Part shown: positions 3,961-35,503 of the stretch, in pieces
Layout of the letters: the number at the start of each line of letters is the position of its first letter
Numbering within the stretch: position 1 is the first letter of the stretch
Virus genome (UHGV): UHGV-1680239
Origin: a virus
Direction: 5' to 3' (one strand)
DNA length: 53,635 nt
Made by a program: the position numbers and the translations under genes
The notes under the pieces: model-generated
What the model was told of the DNA's origin: nothing
What the model saw: the letters and a program-made list of their open reading frames with translations, nothing else
Database searches by the model: none

Positions 3961-4319
3961 TGTCCATGAAAATGGGTGACCTAGCAAAGCGCAAAGAGCC
4001 TGATGCACCGGCTAAGAACACAACTCCTTTGCGCCAACCAGTCAGACCACAGGGACGCCCGACTCGTGGCAAAGAGAAAATTAAAAGCCGCACAATGTCA
4101 CTGGAGGACGAATACTTCGAACTGCTGGAGATGATGAAGTTCATCCCTCGCTTCGAGAAGTTCACTCGTTCTGACGTGATTCGAGCAGCCATTTTCCATC
4201 TGGCAGAGAAGTCACCGCAGGAAATCGAGGACATCGTGAAATTGAATGAGGCGATCACCGCTGCCGATGTCACGATGCGTACCGATGAAATCAAACGAGA
4301 GTTGATGAAGAAAGGTTAA
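3960..4319 (+). CDS. small ribbon-helix-helix protein, probable centromere-binding partition partner (ParG-like)
   Basis: 119 aa, basic disordered N-terminus, RHH-like SLEDEYFELLEMMKFIPRF; translationally coupled to parA. Confidence 0.5.
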   Translation: MSMKMGDLAKRKEPDAPAKNTTPLRQPVRPQGRPTRGKEKIKSRTMSLEDEYFELLEMMKFIPRFEKFTRSDVIRAAIFHLAEKSPQEIEDIVKLNEAITAADVTMRTDEIKRELMKKG

Positions 4320-4322
4320 AAA

Positions 4323-4357
4323 TCATGCATTGGCGCGTACATTGCGCCAATGCATGA
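4323..4357. terminator. palindromic hairpin between convergent genes
   Basis: 13-bp perfect arms TCATGCATTGGCG / CGCCAATGCATGA; on the minus strand it is followed by a T-run, so it likely terminates the 4372..5139 gene. Confidence 0.4.
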
Positions 4358-4371
4358 CTACAGTGTCAGCT

Positions 4372-5139
4372 TTATGCCGCGCTAACACTATGTTCAGTCC
4401 TAACCACCCCAACCTTCACAAAAGGGCTACCGTAGCTTGGTGGCTTCTTGATTAATTTGCCTACATACAGTTTTCTAATATGCTCATCGGCTATTCTGCC
4501 AACAAATTCATAACGTTTTGTGTCGGGGCCAAGAGCTATATCCCTTGTAAAGTACTGCTGAGAACCGGCTTTGACCCAGCATTCAATCTGATAAACTTCC
4601 ATTATCAGCCCACCATATGTAGCGTAGGCATATTTGAGATTCTCGTCTCTTGGAACCTTTGCCCATACGCCACGCGTAGCTTCATATAATGCCAGAGCGG
4701 ACATTCCTGACTTGTAGGTGCTGTTTAGCAGGAAGGCAAGACCGGCGTGCTCAGGAGCAATTTCAGTTTCCTCTTGCAGCACTAAGTGATGGTAGGCGTC
4801 CAGTGATATTCTGCCCATCATGGAACCACTTCCTCGAACCTTATTCGTAAGCTCTCCGACCCCCATAAGGTCGATGCATGTCGCCTCAACAAGTTTGGCT
4901 GTGGTTTCATCCATACCATGACGAAGAATATCTATGCCTAATTTTTTATTAGCCAAAAGTTCTTTGATCCGCATGGATTTGGGAGAGTCATCGGGATACT
5001 TGATGTGATCGAGACAACGAGTCGATTTGCCTTTTCCTATGTAAAACGGTCTTTTCATCTTGTCTTCTGTATCATAGAGACAGTAAACATAGTATTTAGC
5101 CTTATCCAATGATCTCGCGTATACCGATAAATCGTCCAT
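4372..5139 (-). CDS. GIY-YIG nuclease-domain protein with uncharacterised C-terminal domain
   Basis: N-terminal YYVYCLYD...RPFYIGKGKSTR matches the GIY-(10-11)-YIG motif with the downstream Arg; about 150 aa of unassigned C-terminus. Confidence 0.55.
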   Translation of the reverse strand: MDDLSVYARSLDKAKYYVYCLYDTEDKMKRPFYIGKGKSTRCLDHIKYPDDSPKSMRIKELLANKKLGIDILRHGMDETTAKLVEATCIDLMGVGELTNKVRGSGSMMGRISLDAYHHLVLQEETEIAPEHAGLAFLLNSTYKSGMSALALYEATRGVWAKVPRDENLKYAYATYGGLIMEVYQIECWVKAGSQQYFTRDIALGPDTKRYEFVGRIADEHIRKLYVGKLIKKPPSYGSPFVKVGVVRTEHSVSAA

Positions 5140-5250
5140 TATTGCATCTCTTAGCTACTGACTAATGCGTTCTATTTTACACATAAGTTTTTAATCAATT
5201 TAACAGGCTCAAAGTGTAGAGCTTCTGGGCGTCTAAGACGACAAGTTATG

Positions 5251-5305
5251 CCTGCTTCTGTATATATAAATAATAAGTAACTTATTAAATATATACGGAA
5301 GCAGG
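5251..5305. repeat. 55-bp near-perfect palindrome with AT-rich centre (copy 1 of 2)
   Basis: CCTGCTTCTGTATATAT...ATATACGGAAGCAGG; the same element, with shared left flank, recurs at 51889-51947. Confidence 0.7.
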
Positions 5306-28880: not shown

Positions 28881-31220
28881 ATGGCAAAAGGAAAATCCGC
28901 ACTGGCACTTGCTCTGAAAAAGAAAATCGGTAGCAACGACGAAATTCAGAAAGTAACTCATTGGATTGACACAGGCTTTCCTCCGTTAAACAAAGCTATT
29001 TCCGGTCGTTACGATGGCGGTTTCCCATGTGGTCGTATCGTCGAAGTATTCGGGCCGCCAAGCGCGGGGAAATGTGTTACCGCAGACACCATGCTGCTGA
29101 CGGAGCGTGGAATGGTAACAGTGAAAGAGTTGTTTGAGATTGAAGGGTACAAAGCGACATGCACTACTCGCGATGTAGAGCATAACGTTGGACTCATCAA
29201 TGAAAATGGCGTGATAGAGAAGACCTCACACCTGACATGGAACAACCGTCGCAAATTCAAGCGTATTAAGCTGGCATCAGGCGGTTATATCGAGGCTACG
29301 TTCCGTCACCCAATCCGTGTGGTTGACGACTTAGGTAATGTCGTCTGGCGACATGCTGAAAAAATCAGTGTAGGCGACACGATTCCTTCAATGGTTGGCA
29401 CACATCAATTCGGCGATCAGCACCTGGATGCCAATATCGCAAAACTGATGGGCTATTTAATTGCTGACGGATACGTGGCCTCTGAAAATTCAGTGAATTT
29501 TTCTAACACAGATCCTTTCATCAAGGATGAGTACTACCGCCTCATTTCGCTGGTATCAGACAAGATGCCAGTTACGAGAAAACATAACGGCTCGGAAGAC
29601 CATGTGCTGTTTAGCAAAGAGGTGCGTTCGCTGCTTTTTAAAGAATATGGTCTGGAGTATGAGAAAGCTGCTGGCAAGCAGGTTCCGTTGAGTGTGCGTC
29701 GCGCCAATAGCGAGGCTCAAATTGCATTCCTTCGCGGCTACTTTGAGCTGGAATGCCACGTCAATGATGGTCGCTGCATTGAGGTTGTGAGCGCGAGTGG
29801 GCTGCTGCTACAGCAAATTCGCCTCATGCTCCTGAATCTGGGGATTACGTCAACTGTCTCTGAAAAACACGTCGCGGGTTATGAAAATACATATTACCGG
29901 CTGTCATTCAGTGGCTCTAATTACGACCTTTTTCTGTCAACGATTGGTTTCGAATCTCCGGCACGTTTATCAGTGGCAACCAAACGGGACATTGGTTTTG
30001 ACCGCACTTACTCAGGCTATGTTCCGCACATCAGCGGCTTAGTGAAATCACTCTACGAGTCGCTCACCAAGACCACCCGTGAAGACTACGCTCTGGTAGA
30101 CCACGTTATTGGCCGCGGCGATCGTGTCGGAATAGACAAACTGCGAGAAATCTATGTCTCCTTCATTGGCAGAAAGAATCGTTTTAACGAGCATCTGTTT
30201 GCAGAACTGGCAGCGGTAATTGGCTCTAACTTGTTCTACGACGAAGTCGTGGCTATTGAGGAAGGTGAAGCACCAACGTTCGACGTAGCGATGCCGGAAA
30301 CACACTCTTTCTGGTCTAACGGGATTATCAGCCACAACACATTCCTTGCAACAGCAGCAATGATCTCCGCACAGAAACAAGATGGTCTGGCGGTATTCCT
30401 CGATCATGAGAACAGTTTTGACGTTGGCCTGGCTGTAGCCAATGGCCTGAACGCAGATGAGGATGACGGTCAGTGGGTATACAAGCAGCCAGATACCTTC
30501 GAAGACTCTGTAGAGTTGATCGGCACAATACTTAAATTGGTTCGTGATGAAGAGCTTATCCCCGAATCAGCACCTATCTGTATCGTGGCTGACTCTCTTG
30601 CGTCTATGGTTCCGAACTCCAAAGCCGAGAAGTTCGAAAAGATGGCTGAAGGCACTGCCAAAGACAAAGATCAGCTAAACATGAACGACAATACGGCACT
30701 GGCTCGTGCGACGAGTGCGAACTTCCCTACTCTGGCTTTGTGGGCACGCAAATACAACGCCTGCATCATCTTCTTGAATCAGGTTCGCACAAAAATCGGT
30801 GTAATGTTTGGCGACCCTACTACGTCGCCAGGTGGAGATTCACCGAAGTTCTACGCTTCTGTACGTATCCGTCTTGGTGCATCGGTGATGAAGGATGGTA
30901 AAGAGAAGATCGGCCAGGACGTAGGCGCAGAATGCATCAAAAACAAAGTTGCACCACCGTATGGCAAATGCACCTGGAAATTCTACTTCGATCCTACTCG
31001 TGGCCTCGACGTTATCGAATCGCTCGTCGAGTACATGCTGGAAGAAGGATACCTGCCAAAGAACGCCAGCGGGCGAGTTGAAATTGGTGACAAGAAATAC
31101 ACCAAATCGCAGATCGTCGAGATGTATCGGGAGAAGCCACTGGCTGAAATCATTGCGGCTTTGCAGGCAATCGACGACCGAAGAGCAAAAGACAACCCCA
31201 CCGAGTCAGTAGAAGAGTAA
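28881..31220 (+). CDS. RecA/UvsX-like recombinase precursor interrupted by an intein
   Basis: Exteins join as GPPSAGK|TFLATAA...; RecA-like FLNQVRTKIGVMFGDPTTSPGGDSPKFYASVRIRLG; 779 aa total, about 357 aa without the intein. Confidence 0.8.
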   Translation: MAKGKSALALALKKKIGSNDEIQKVTHWIDTGFPPLNKAISGRYDGGFPCGRIVEVFGPPSAGKCVTADTMLLTERGMVTVKELFEIEGYKATCTTRDVEHNVGLINENGVIEKTSHLTWNNRRKFKRIKLASGGYIEATFRHPIRVVDDLGNVVWRHAEKISVGDTIPSMVGTHQFGDQHLDANIAKLMGYLIADGYVASENSVNFSNTDPFIKDEYYRLISLVSDKMPVTRKHNGSEDHVLFSKEVRSLLFKEYGLEYEKAAGKQVPLSVRRANSEAQIAFLRGYFELECHVNDGRCIEVVSASGLLLQQIRLMLLNLGITSTVSEKHVAGYENTYYRLSFSGSNYDLFLSTIGFESPARLSVATKRDIGFDRTYSGYVPHISGLVKSLYESLTKTTREDYALVDHVIGRGDRVGIDKLREIYVSFIGRKNRFNEHLFAELAAVIGSNLFYDEVVAIEEGEAPTFDVAMPETHSFWSNGIISHNTFLATAAMISAQKQDGLAVFLDHENSFDVGLAVANGLNADEDDGQWVYKQPDTFEDSVELIGTILKLVRDEELIPESAPICIVADSLASMVPNSKAEKFEKMAEGTAKDKDQLNMNDNTALARATSANFPTLALWARKYNACIIFLNQVRTKIGVMFGDPTTSPGGDSPKFYASVRIRLGASVMKDGKEKIGQDVGAECIKNKVAPPYGKCTWKFYFDPTRGLDVIESLVEYMLEEGYLPKNASGRVEIGDKKYTKSQIVEMYREKPLAEIIAALQAIDDRRAKDNPTESVEE
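29073..30338 (+). mobile_element. intein (422 aa) with LAGLIDADG homing-endonuclease domain, inserted in the P-loop
   Basis: Begins with Cys after GPPSAGK, ends ...IISHN followed by Thr; LAGLIDADG-like blocks KLMGYLIADGY and FLRGYFELECHV. Confidence 0.75.
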
Positions 31221-31226
31221 ACACAA

Positions 31227-31249
31227 GGCGTCCACAGGACGCCTTTTTT
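31227..31249 (+). terminator. rho-independent terminator
   Basis: GGCGTCC-ACA-GGACGCC followed by TTTTTT. Confidence 0.65.
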
Positions 31250-31312
31250 ATCTCTTGAAAATATATAAGCACTTACTTATTATTTTCGCATAACAACCAC
31301 ATAGGAAAACAC

Positions 31313-31513
31313 ATGATCAAAATCTATCTATTGGCAGTAGCCACAGGCCTTTCAGTGGCTCTCATCTACGGTTTACTGGTTCCGTCGCTGATTTCTACCA
31401 AGAGTGATTTAGCCGTCATGTTTGGAGTTATCGTTGGTTTTGGTGCTCCTGTAATCGGTCTTATTGCTGGTCGTAAGTTTATCAACTCATTAATCAAAGC
31501 AAAGGGGAAATAA
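31313..31513 (+). CDS. small two-TM membrane protein (NfeD-like partner candidate)
   Basis: 66 aa, two hydrophobic helices; 3 nt upstream of the SPFH gene. Confidence 0.45.
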   Translation: MIKIYLLAVATGLSVALIYGLLVPSLISTKSDLAVMFGVIVGFGAPVIGLIAGRKFINSLIKAKGK

Positions 31514-31516
31514 GTA

Positions 31517-32347
31517 ATGAAGAAAGGTTTACTTGCAGTTGCTCTGGCGGCTATTTGCACAATGGGTCTTACTGGCTGCGATCGCGTGGAGCCTGGATAC
31601 GTTGGCATCAAAGTAAACAAATTAGGTGAAGACAAAGGGATTGGTGAAGTGGTTGGCGTTGGTCGCCAATGGACAGGTCTTAACACCGAACTTTACGTAT
31701 TCCCGACCTTCAAACAAATGAAGACCTACGACGAGCCGTTCACATTCCAGATGAGTGACGGTACTGCTATTGGTCACAAAATTGGCGTTGCGTATCTGGT
31801 TAATCGTGACAAGGTAACGACGGTGTTCCAGACCTATCGCAAAGGCGTAGACGATATCACCGAATCAGATCTGCGTCAGAAAATTGCCGACTCTCTAAAC
31901 CGTTTGGCCAGCCGTATGACCACTGACTCATTTATCGACGGTGGTAAGGCACAATTGCTGGACAACGCACTGAAAGATATTCAGAAAGAGATGTCTCCGG
32001 TTGGTATTGAGGTACTGAGCCTGTCATGGGTTGGAAAGCCTGATTACCCAAAAACTGTCATTGAATCTATTAACGCCAAAGTAACGGCTAACCAGCGTAC
32101 TCTGCAACGTCAGCAGGAAGTAGAACAACGTAAAGCTGAGGCGAATATGCTGCGTGAACAGGCTAATGGTGAAGCTGATGCTATCCGTGCTCGTGCGCAG
32201 GCAGAAGCAGATGCCATTCGTCTGCGCGGTGAAGCTCTGCGTCAAAACCCGAACGTTATGGAACTGGAAGCCATCAATAAATGGAATGGCCAGTTACCGC
32301 AGTACATGACTCAAGGGGCTAACACTCCTTTCATTACAGTGAAATAA
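31517..32347 (+). CDS. SPFH/band-7 (stomatin/prohibitin-like) domain lipoprotein
   Basis: Signal peptide with lipobox LTG-C; SPFH-like core then Ala/Glu/Arg-rich coiled-coil (AEANMLREQANGEADAIRARAQAEADAIRLRGEA). Confidence 0.65.
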   Translation: MKKGLLAVALAAICTMGLTGCDRVEPGYVGIKVNKLGEDKGIGEVVGVGRQWTGLNTELYVFPTFKQMKTYDEPFTFQMSDGTAIGHKIGVAYLVNRDKVTTVFQTYRKGVDDITESDLRQKIADSLNRLASRMTTDSFIDGGKAQLLDNALKDIQKEMSPVGIEVLSLSWVGKPDYPKTVIESINAKVTANQRTLQRQQEVEQRKAEANMLREQANGEADAIRARAQAEADAIRLRGEALRQNPNVMELEAINKWNGQLPQYMTQGANTPFITVK

Positions 32348-32363: not shown

Positions 32364-32388
32364 AGGCGTCCAGTTGGACGCCTTTTTT
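32364..32388 (+). terminator. rho-independent terminator
   Basis: AGGCGTCC-AGTT-GGACGCCT followed by TTTTTT. Confidence 0.65.
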
Positions 32389-32438
32389 ATCGCAATTATC
32401 TTATTAAGAAAACAATTTGTTTAAAAGGATAAGAAAAC

Positions 32439-32864
32439 ATGACAGCTATTAAGAAACTCTACGATGCCGCAAACGTGGCTCTGGATGTTATTGATGATGA
32501 AGTAGCAAAAGGCTTTCCTGAACCTGATTGGGCGCATCAGCTACGAAACGCTATCGCAGAAATGACCCCACCAGATCCAACCCCCGACGAGACAGACTGG
32601 CAGCGATTCATCCGTATGTACGCTCAGGAAATAGGTCCAACGCCAACGGCAGAGCAGGCAATGCTGCTGAAATACTTCAAAGAGGCGGGAGAGGATTTAC
32701 CAATTGATGACTCAGCATATTGGTTCCACTGCGCATGGCGTAAGTATGACGTGATATTCACACAAGGCATGGGAAGCAAAGATATGGTTGTGTGGCATCT
32801 ACTCCATATAGACACAGCCGTTGACAGAGTTATTGAACAGTTTTTCCCTAAACAAGAAGATTGA
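32439..32864 (+). CDS. hypothetical protein
   Basis: 141-aa ORF preceded by the conserved GAAAACAATTTGTTTAAAA leader motif and RBS. Confidence 0.5.
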   Translation: MTAIKKLYDAANVALDVIDDEVAKGFPEPDWAHQLRNAIAEMTPPDPTPDETDWQRFIRMYAQEIGPTPTAEQAMLLKYFKEAGEDLPIDDSAYWFHCAWRKYDVIFTQGMGSKDMVVWHLLHIDTAVDRVIEQFFPKQED

Positions 32865-33965: not shown

Positions 33966-34449
33966 AACCACTGCGGTGAGTAGTCTGCTCACCGCATTCG
34001 TATCCAGCTCATTATCCACTGTAGTCAGTAACAAAACCTTCCTACATATCTGCTAACCACTGTAGCGAGTAGACAGCCTTTCATTCGCATCAAACAACCA
34101 CTATGGTGAGTATTGGAGTGAGATGTCCAGCGGGTATCCACTATGGTGAGTAAGCCTTTGCTGTTTTCAGTGGATATCCACTCGCCACAGTGGATACGCT
34201 CAAAGATGAGGGCGACAACAACCACTATAGACAGTAAATTTTCCAAGATACCCAGTGACCACTAACCTCGCAGCCCTTGTTTCATCAGTGTTAGTGATCA
34301 CTAACATTTAATTCAGTATTTGCATTCTACTGCCTACAGTGGTTATCAACAGATAACGATACTCACTATAGTGGATAGCGAATTACAGATATAAGTAAGG
34401 CTCACTACAGTGGATAGTGAGCCTTACTACTAACTACAGTGGTTGGGCT
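33966..34449. repeat. iteron field downstream of repA (incA-like), about 10 copies in both orientations
   Basis: Repeated units such as AACCACTGCGGTGAGTAG, TATCCACTGTAGTCAGTAAC, AACCACTATGGTGAGTAT and their complements (CTACAGTGGATAG). Confidence 0.7.
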
Positions 34450-35503
34450 ATTTGCGAGTCTTTGCCTTGCGCAACTCTTCGAGAAGCGCCAGTTCTTCTT
34501 TACTCAACATGACCATTTTGCCTTCTTTTTCGTCAGGCACAACGTCGATAATGTCATCTTGATTCTCATCTGGGAGGCTATATTCCGTCTCATCATTATC
34601 GATTTTTGTTGATATTTGTGCCTGGCGTAACTTTGGCCGCCTATAGTGGATGACGAAGTAGACCGAGTTTCCGCGCTTAACTTCCGTGTAATCGAGATAT
34701 CCTATCTCTCGCAGCTGTTCCATAGCCTTTCTTACCGTCGCATTCTGAGTAATAGTGCGACTTGTTAGATTAAGTCTGGCGCGTAAACGGGCTAGTGATA
34801 TTGGTGCCGGATCAGGCGGCAAACTTTCAATAAAAGTATAAAGCGCCTGAGCGGATTCTTTTCTTGAGAGTTCGTTTATAGCCCGGAGTTGCAGAAGAAC
34901 CTTTTTGTCGAACTGGTAGAGTTCGAAAATCTTGGGATCTGCTTTCAGTTCGACCGTATCGTGCTTGACACTATATTTTGCCGTTTGCACAAGATGCGTT
35001 ACGTAAAACTCATCAGAGCCTTTGCTACGGAACGAGATGGTATTTGTGGCAATACGGCTTAGCGAACTGTCCAGGCGTTTGCGTAACTTCGCTGATGACC
35101 TGGCGGTCGGAATGCCACACAGCCTTACAAACTCAACGAACGGCAACGTGACAGTATCGCCAACGACCTTGTGTTTGGCAAACGCGTGGATTATTCCCAC
35201 CCACGTTTTAAAGTCGTTATCCATATCAAGCCGAAGGCCAGAGATCCTTATGTCTTCGTACCCTTCGGCTTTTGCCAGAGACAGCTGTTTGAGTTCAGCA
35301 GAGGCATCCATAGAGACCATTTGCCCCTTTCTTCCTCTGGATGTCGATTTCAGCGTCGGAACGAAGAGGCCCAGACGCATCAAAGCAACAGGCTGAACAG
35401 TGTTATTAGTGTTAGGAACCAACATAACAACTTCGCCTGTCTTTTTATCTGTTTCTGAAAATGCTTCAACGATCGCTATGTTTTTATTGCCGTTTTCGCT
35501 CAT
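34448..35503 (-). CDS. repA: iteron-binding plasmid replication initiator RepA (P1/RepFIB-like)
   Basis: 351 aa; [16 protein letters not shown] ... [25 protein letters not shown] resemble P1 RepA as I recall it; gene flanked on both sides by iterons. Confidence 0.75.

Follow-up and report, generated by a model that had tools for sequence, protein, structure and literature searches.

What would a phage gain from an SPFH protein, and why should a small membrane protein be encoded directly in front of it? These questions are raised by the virus genome UHGV-1680239, an SSU5-like phage-plasmid of Escherichia coli, which was analyzed as a stretch of 53,635 nucleotides (the window). Two plus-strand open reading frames (ORFs) within it, with boundaries at exactly 31313–31513 and 31517–32347, encode a 66-amino acid membrane protein and a 276-amino acid SPFH-domain lipoprotein. 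SPFH proteins are universal membrane organizers, and their functions in bacteria are mostly unclear. A first-pass annotation of the window had described the two genes as a unit with its own terminator, likened them to NfeD–SPFH operons and suggested a role in lysis timing or superinfection exclusion. On the evidence of sequence comparison, the two genes form a genuine and ancient pair. The reading that we favor, at about even odds (a probability of roughly 0.5), is that the proteins form a periplasm-facing SPFH cage in the inner membrane with a dedicated hairpin subunit.

The SPFH lipoprotein and its small membrane partner

The larger gene (31517..32347, plus strand) encodes an SPFH protein, as the first-pass annotation had proposed. 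A hidden Markov model (HMM) search matched it to Pfam Band_7 (PF01145; E = 2.6e-30, 106.2 bits against a cut-off of 23.6), with residues 23–209 covering positions 2–176 of the 176-position profile. An AlphaFold monomer model (mean predicted local distance difference test score, pLDDT, 77) was examined with DSSP and showed strands in residues 20–95 and 164–176, helices in residues 97–162, a 65-residue helix at 179–243, a short helix and a low-confidence tail; this is the alpha/beta SPFH fold followed by a long coiled-coil helix, and the coiled-coil tail noted at the outset was thereby recovered. The long helix (32051..32245) is rich in Ala and Glu and matches the wall-forming helix of SPFH cages, and the same region gave a weak Pfam Flotillin match (residues 208–266, E = 8e-4) and a Prohibitin-2 coiled-coil match (residues 197–254). 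Foldseek placed HflK/HflC first, followed by erlin, prohibitin, stomatin, flotillin, major vault protein and QmcA, all with probability 1.0 and all cage subunits; the QmcA–YbbJ complex (8z5g) was among the structural matches.

In sequence searches of solved structures and NCBIfam models, too, HflK and HflC scored best, the NCBIfam alignments being confined to residues 115–240. Orthology was rejected, because the scores fell far below the equivalog cut-offs (TIGR01932 hflC, 30.2 bits against 134.4; TIGR01933 hflK, 18.7 against 159.4) and because the phage has a single lipobox-anchored SPFH gene, with no adjacent paralogous TM-anchored pair (TM, transmembrane). Downstream of the helix, conservation picked out a C-terminal motif, A-I-N-K-W-N-G-Q-L-P-Q-Y-M (residues 252–264; 32270..32308), in which Trp256 is invariant and Gly258 and Pro261 are at least 90% conserved among 44 homologues ranging down to 30% identity. 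This motif may serve in cap formation or as an interaction site.

The prediction of a lipoprotein likewise held. The signal peptide (31517..31582) reads MKKGLLAVALAAICTMGLTG-C21-D-R, with an MKK n-region, a hydrophobic h-region and the lipobox L-T-G-C, which conforms to the pattern [LVI][ASTVI][GAS]C; Cys21 is encoded at 31577–31579 and the Asp at position +2 at 31580–31582. The PHROG collection agrees, the protein matching phrog_200 ("lipoprotein") at E = 3e-108. Cys21, Asp22 and Arg23 are each at least 90% conserved among close homologues, and the Cys is invariant in 44 diverse homologues that were chosen for having a lipobox. Among the approximately 126 informative cluster representatives, 98 carry a lipobox, and the other 28 (about a fifth, distant members) have a plain TM anchor instead. 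The +2 residue of the close homologues with a lipobox is Asp in 93 of 98 and Glu in the remaining 5. Asp at this position is the Lol-avoidance signal, that is, the signal for inner-membrane retention, in Enterobacteriaceae.

The smaller gene (31313..31513, plus strand) encodes the membrane protein described in the first-pass annotation. Its two hydrophobic segments lie at about residues 4–24 and 33–53 (Kyte–Doolittle 19-residue means of 2.1–2.4) and are followed by a Lys/Arg-rich C-terminal tail of 13 residues. The predicted topology is N-in/C-in, with the turn P24-S-L-I-S28 in the periplasm. The protein matched phrog_1130 ("membrane protein", E = 2e-25); no match was obtained in Pfam at E ≤ 0.1, NfeD (PF01957) included, or in NCBIfam. 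When 28 diverse partners were aligned (mean column identity 30%), Pro24 was invariant and Ser28 at least 90% conserved, so that conservation is centered on the turn at the predicted periplasmic end of the first TM segment, the TM residues being variable. Two TM segments and a basic C terminus are also what is expected of a class II holin or pinholin. The gene does not lie in a lysis cassette, its neighbors being the recA-like and DUF7238 genes, and no holin family was matched; identity as a holin was rejected on genomic context, on the gene fusions described below and on the pattern of conservation.

Conservation of the gene pair and natural fusions

A word-index search with the 66-residue sequence returned close relatives only, and distant partners were found by position and with a custom HMM. 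For this purpose, 160 loci were fetched from viral and genome collections with a 10-sequence SPFH alignment, combined with the earlier loci and the window, reduced to 89 non-redundant loci and searched with an HMM of partner sequences. A partner match (E ≤ 0.002) was found on the same strand within 720 nt directly upstream of the SPFH gene at 45 of the 89 loci. Control sequence from the same loci, 24 times larger, contained a single match, which was a pair split by the insertion sequence IS1. In this prophage copy, on the chromosome of E. coli ECMA0423 (locus L092, 4018–5828), IS1 (InsA/InsB ORFs, 4218–4915) separates the partner from the SPFH gene.

The pair recurs in unrelated phages. In the P2-like phage P88, a 67-residue membrane protein overlaps a 276-residue SPFH lipoprotein, the identities to the window being 77% for the SPFH protein and 25% for the partner. 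In phiP27 (locus L005, 2762–2950) and the P1-like RCS47 (locus L006, 2738–2974), two-TM ORFs of 62 and 78 amino acids overlap the SPFH start codon; both are left out of the RefSeq annotation. Virulent phages gave clear partner matches, namely gp044 of the N4-like Erwinia phage S6 (E = 9e-15) and gp225 of the Mydovirus KpS8 (E = 1e-12), and gp49 of the temperate Burkholderia phage phi1026b gave a weak one (E = 0.009). The partner is adjacent to the SPFH gene in SSU5, P88, phiP27, RCS47, S6 and KpS8, and the two genes overlap or adjoin on the same strand in P88, phiP27, RCS47, S6 and phi1026b. Partner matches upstream of the SPFH gene extend to loci of Sutterella, Dependentiae, Methylumidiphilus and Bacteroidales and to many of Caulobacter, with SPFH proteins 27–50% identical to that of the window. 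The Caulobacter homologues with a partner fall into three synteny groups, and their neighbors include lgt, proC, a histidine kinase, an aminotransferase, an M61 peptidase and an ABC permease; only Pfam-confirmed neighbors were counted, as crude ORF calls in this high-GC DNA gave spurious antisense ORFs.

In 13 of approximately 143 full-length representatives of 50%-identity clusters (about 9%), the hairpin is fused to the SPFH protein in the order TM1–turn–TM2–basic linker–TM3/lipobox–SPFH. Hairpin–SPFH fusions also occur at deltaproteobacterial and candidate-phyla-radiation loci, and one close-range fusion of 347 amino acids (P0021) was present on two independent contigs. The phrog_200 profile has 379 positions, of which the window protein matches 80–359, because some members of that family carry the fused hairpin. 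An AlphaFold model of a natural fusion, built with SPFH homologues only, has three N-terminal helices at pLDDT 45–60; it fits the topology and adds little. The functional pairing assumed in the first-pass annotation is therefore well founded: since the genes are fused in some lineages and conserved as neighbors in others, there is strong evidence of joint action by the two proteins, probably at 1:1.

Cassette boundaries, expression and spread

The two genes are separated by 3 nt, and the GGGGAA Shine–Dalgarno sequence of the second lies inside the end of the first. They are also in the same frame, with only TAA and one codon between them (31511–31516), such that read-through would give the fusion architecture; the shared frame is probably a coincidence, because the genes of other phages overlap in different frames. 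An intrinsic terminator, an 8-bp GC-rich hairpin with a T-run, follows the SPFH gene (32364..32392, plus strand; −15.1 kcal/mol, z = −4.2), and the claim of a two-gene unit with its own terminator was in this way substantiated.

A second copy of this hairpin precedes the cassette and terminates the upstream recA-like gene (31225..31254, plus strand; GGCGTCC-loop-GGACGCC and a T-run, −14.7 kcal/mol, z = −6.95). Within the 53.6-kb window, the stem GGCGTCC/GGACGCC with TTTTTTATC behind it is confined to two sites, after the recA-like and after the SPFH gene, and SSU5 has the same duplicated-hairpin arrangement around its cassette. Klebsiella SSU5-like phage-plasmids keep the recA-like and further-downstream genes and lack the cassette. 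Their empty site (e.g. in Klebsiella phage ST13-OXA48phi12.3) has a single hairpin, of which the left flank aligns with the end of recA and the right flank with the DNA after the second hairpin of SSU5 and the window. Because the terminator is duplicated around the cassette and single at the empty site, the sequences identify the cassette as a discrete promoter–genes–terminator insertion of approximately 1.14 kb, with the classical anatomy of a moron: a promoter-like site and terminator of its own, and insertion polymorphism among related phages. It is a horizontally mobile, self-contained accessory unit of the SSU5-like phage-plasmid.

The promoter scan placed a sigma70-type site, TTGAAA-17-TATTAT (10 of 12 consensus positions), at 31255..31283 on the plus strand. 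Both hexamers and their spacing are kept in SSU5 despite approximately 78% identity of the surrounding DNA, and the site is a likely promoter. Its spacer contains a near-palindrome in the window (31267–31276, TAAGCACTTA) and a perfect 10-bp palindrome in SSU5 (locus L004, 2371–2380, TAAGTACTTA). This palindrome is a candidate operator; such a role would be in keeping with the conditional expression of the Cyrano genes.

For the near-identical element Cyrano in E. coli LF82, RNA-seq values (log2(5 + fpkm), where fpkm is fragments per kilobase per million reads) are available in S1 Table of PMC9928086. After overnight growth in lysogeny broth (LB), the cassette genes (CYRAN_56/57) were at background (small gene, 2.32/2.32; SPFH gene, 4.3/3.0), and in macrophages at 6 h they reached 7.6/7.7 and 7.25/7.4, respectively (PMC9928086). 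This is an induction of about 10- to 40-fold with the neighbors flat, the flanking RecA (4.06) and CYRAN_58 (about 4) being unmoved (PMC9928086). Because the pair rises while these genes stay flat, the Cyrano cassette is shown to be transcribed conditionally and independently of its flanks. The two genes are not among the 13 morons listed by the authors, and several structural genes of Cyrano also rise at the 6-h time point (PMC9928086). The rise may reflect partial derepression of the phage or a stress response, and the simultaneous rise of structural genes makes the two inseparable.

Judged by its conservation, the two-gene unit is real and far beyond chance, being conserved in phages and plasmids and found in diverged form in hundreds of other phages. 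A 1.25-kb region containing it is 98.6% identical to Escherichia phage CMS-2020a and 94–95% identical to PhiR41_1 and Cyrano, and at least 95% identical to 168 plasmids of about 107–113 kb. At a DNA identity of at least 94%, the pair is kept in 4 phage records and 181 plasmid records. Matches to the cassette were present in 283 of 5,426 complete E. coli genomes (5%), at 198 places on plasmids and 101 on chromosomes. The G+C content of the cassette is 46.6%, against 46.0% for the window.

The SPFH protein was found by tblastn in 377 of 50,697 phage records. Temperate carriers comprise SSU5-like, P1-like, P2-like and Stx phages and phi1026b; other carriers are N4-like Schitoviridae, Mydovirus and related myoviruses of approximately 145 kb, 340-kb jumbo phages, 45-kb Pseudomonas podoviruses, Erwinia phiEa104-like, phiCbK-like, crAss-like and Lak phages. 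Since both virulent and temperate phages carry the gene, any general function must be useful in the lytic cycle. P88 and phiP27 have the pair within early (lytic) operons.

Upstream of the cassette, the window has a RecA/UvsX-like recombinase gene (28881–31220, plus strand; 779 amino acids) that is split by an intein with a LAGLIDADG homing-endonuclease domain (Pfam RecA, Intein_splicing and LAGLIDADG_3); in SSU5 and the Klebsiella relatives the recA-like gene is intein-free and measures 1,077 nt. Just downstream is the gene of a DUF7238 protein (32439–32864, plus strand; Pfam E = 5e-38; phrog_1451, unknown function). In one database protein (P0018), SPFH residues 1–226 are joined to the DUF7238 protein, a chimera that apparently arose by deletion across the terminator. 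A RepA-type replication initiator (Rep3_N/Rep3_C; phrog_775) is encoded on the minus strand at 34448–35503, and the variable region with the cassette sits between the recombination genes and the plasmid replicon. In a P1-like copy (locus L171), a Tad2-like (anti-Thoeris) gene lies approximately 700 nt downstream of the SPFH cassette, at 4729–5304; this is an accessory-gene neighborhood.

Possible mode of action, rival explanations and known systems

In the arrangement that we favor, the 276-residue product would be exported, lipid-modified at Cys21 and kept in the inner membrane by its acidic +2 residue, with the SPFH domain in the periplasm. Its long C-terminal helix would mediate assembly into a homo-oligomeric ring or dome enclosing an inner-membrane patch, on the model of HflK/C, prohibitin, erlin, stomatin and flotillin. 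The 66-residue hairpin would be a dedicated, stoichiometric TM subunit, its P-x-x-x-S turn docking under the SPFH domains. It would thereby give the lipid-anchored cage a TM footing, a job that falls to the TM anchors in HflK/C and to the membrane portion of the partner in NfeD systems, and that an unrelated protein would do here. The pair would act on a conserved host inner-membrane process in phage development or envelope stress, not on rival phages, and the single most likely target would be membrane-protein quality control of the FtsH/HflKC type.

Placement in the inner membrane with the SPFH domain on the periplasmic face is suggested by the acidic +2 residue, by the plain TM anchors of some members and by the order of TM segments in the fusions, a topology consistent with an N-in/C-in hairpin, as predicted, and with an SPFH domain in the periplasm. 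An oligomeric cage is plausible by analogy, because the architecture of anchor, SPFH domain, long helix and C-terminal motif is shared with cage-forming SPFH proteins. As to the presumed docking of the hairpin and the presumed host target, quality control of the FtsH type is favored because HflK/C are the nearest characterized relatives and because, among SPFH proteins whose partners are known, several act together with a membrane protease; FtsH specifically is a doubtful candidate. A conserved host process is likelier than a rival phage, because the SPFH protein, which is conserved far more strongly than the TM helices of the partner, is found in virulent and temperate phages that are unrelated to one another and has cellular counterparts. 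A bolder version would make the pair a portable counterpart of HflK/C, in which the homo-oligomeric dome and hairpin capture a host machine, plausibly FtsH or another quality-control or insertion factor, and alter membrane-protein stability. This is a long shot; if true, phages of many diderm hosts, temperate and virulent alike, would share a host-takeover device whose origin is a bacterial SPFH–hairpin module not described before.

Several points weigh against the cage with its hairpin subunit. The cage, the membrane location and the contact between the two proteins are things that we infer, and a monomer model is silent on a cage. In the model of the natural fusion, the hairpin is predicted with low confidence (pLDDT 45–60, as above). 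The similarity to HflK/C is remote (30 and 19 bits for HflC and HflK, respectively, against cut-offs of 134 and 159), and there is no link specific to FtsH. The +3 residue of the SPFH protein is Arg, and a basic +3 residue may weaken Asp+2 retention, which would leave outer-membrane sorting possible. No partner was found in Pseudomonas phage MHN1 or at many Phenylobacterium and Caulobacter loci, and because some SPFH homologues lack it, the partner is not obligatory across the whole family. Finally, a possible relative, an "HflK/C-like" protein of a Pasteurella multocida prophage, PM0222 (OAZ06802.1), is reported to occur in outer-membrane vesicles, to activate TLR1/2 and to be needed for full virulence (PMC9872710).

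Superinfection exclusion or anti-phage defense, in which the lipoprotein and the small membrane protein would block DNA entry or another envelope step, is an unlikely alternative that draws on several observations. T4 Imm/Sp, T5 Llp, phi80 Cor and P22 SieA offer analogues, and a lipoprotein with a small membrane protein is the usual make-up of such systems. The cassette is accessory, being present or absent among related phage-plasmids; phrog_1130 is filed under "moron, auxiliary metabolic gene and host takeover"; and, by the known layouts of N4-like phages and 45-kb Pseudomonas podoviruses, the gene lies in early or middle regions in virulent phages. The SPFH gene of Vi01-like phages also adjoins a gene annotated "superinfection exclusion protein" (PMC3220722). 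On the other side, no PADLOC-DB 2.0 model matched either protein, or the downstream DUF7238 protein, at E ≤ 1. Exclusion proteins are fast-evolving, whereas the SPFH protein is 77% identical between unrelated phages and 60–69% identical to those of virulent phages of other hosts. Cyrano lysogens in LB have the genes at background, and the 13-moron list omits them; the homologous pairs of Caulobacter stand in housekeeping chromosomal contexts. A further alternative is lysogenic conversion, in which the pair would stabilize the envelope under host-associated stress, or a surface or vesicle lipoprotein would alter virulence. In its favor, the Cyrano genes in LF82 rise only inside macrophages at 6 h (7.3–7.7) and independently of their neighbors. 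Deletion of PM0222 attenuates virulence and changes capsule, adhesion and serum resistance (PMC9872710), and E. coli HflKC contributes to stress tolerance (PMC10434171). Conversion is nonetheless quite improbable: strictly virulent phages (N4-like, Mydovirus, jumbo and phiCbK-like) carry the module, and lysogenic conversion cannot be selected there; the concurrent rise of Cyrano structural genes means that the signal may be partial derepression; and PM0222 is no more than a possible relative of the phage SPFH family.

The other two alternatives turn on the small protein. In lysis timing, as suggested in the first-pass annotation, it would be holin- or antiholin-like, and the SPFH scaffold would delay or sharpen holin triggering. 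The size, two TM segments, predicted N-in/C-in topology and basic C terminus of the partner are typical of class II holins, and SPFH scaffolds, which restrict lateral diffusion, could conceivably affect the formation of holin rafts. This is very improbable, as holin, endolysin or spanin genes stood next to the pair at none of the 8 phage loci inspected, the holin–endolysin–Rz/Rz1 cassette of Cyrano lies elsewhere, about 30 kb away, conservation of the partner is in the periplasmic turn and not in the TM helices, and neither the hairpin–SPFH fusions nor the bacterial chromosomal pairs fit a holin. That the pair is a canonical NfeD–SPFH operon with a reduced NfeD is scarcely credible. The resemblance seen at the outset stands insofar as a membrane-protein gene lies adjacent to the SPFH gene on the same strand, and the QmcA–YbbJ complex appears among the structural matches; it is an analogy only, because PF01957 gave no match at E ≤ 0.1, 66 amino acids are too few for the C-terminal oligonucleotide/oligosaccharide-binding (OB) fold and the partner family has its own conserved motif. 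The SPFH domain is moreover exported here, while QmcA, as Chiba and co-workers reportedly found in 2006, faces the cytoplasm.

The cage-plus-hairpin scaffold lends itself to experiment: two genes in 1.1 kb, carried by tractable E. coli elements, make a small testable system, and candidates for point mutants are evident (Cys21 and Asp22 of the SPFH protein, Pro24 and Ser28 of the partner). Capture of FtsH or a similar host machine by the cage would account for its retention by such different phages and would amount to a new host-takeover mechanism; if the pair only stabilizes membranes, it is an ordinary accessory gene. The comparison also benefits annotation, in that a small gene often missed (as in phiP27 and RCS47) is recovered and a name is corrected. 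In SSU5, Cyrano, P88, phiP27, RCS47 and hundreds of plasmids, the databases call the SPFH gene product "SPFH domain-containing protein," "lipoprotein," "putative serine protease" or "stomatin-like protein," and "serine protease" is a wrong legacy name. Published work states that the role of the phage SPFH gene is unclear (PMC13239085, PMC7760394 and PMC8540360). A literature search found no functional study of the phage SPFH lipoprotein family, PM0222 being a possible relative, nor did it turn up any account of the hairpin partner and its conservation, of the fusions or of the counterparts in cells.

Set beside known systems, the cassette proteins are members of the phage families phrog_200 and phrog_1130, with no difference at the sequence level; the genes are already annotated, belong to existing PHROGs and are common. 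With the phage morons as defined in HK97 and HK022, the cassette shares a promoter-like site and terminator of its own, presence or absence among relatives and a position between two conserved genes at a terminator. It differs in that, in the single data set at hand, the Cyrano cassette is not constitutively expressed from the prophage and that the P88 and phiP27 pairs are embedded in early lytic operons. HflK/HflC, which are the best sequence and structure matches, resemble the SPFH protein in the SPFH fold with its long wall helix and, as inferred here, in a periplasmic SPFH domain, and they have a historical link to phage through lambda CII stability. They are, however, FtsH modulators encoded by a K/C gene pair and anchored by an N-terminal TM helix, whereas the phage has one gene, a lipid anchor and a separate two-TM partner, and its protein scores far below the equivalog cut-offs. 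The SPFH–NfeD operons (QmcA–YbbJ, YqiK–YqiJ, FloT–YuaF and archaeal stomatin–STOPP) likewise pair and co-transcribe an SPFH gene with a membrane-protein gene, whose product is expected in the membrane patch under the cage; there the partner is an NfeD protein with an OB-fold and the SPFH domain is cytoplasmic, whereas here the partner is a P-x-x-x-S hairpin and the SPFH domain is exported. The phage pair, a lipid-anchored SPFH scaffold whose hairpin subunit is not an NfeD protein, is thus a variant arrangement of a known scaffold type.

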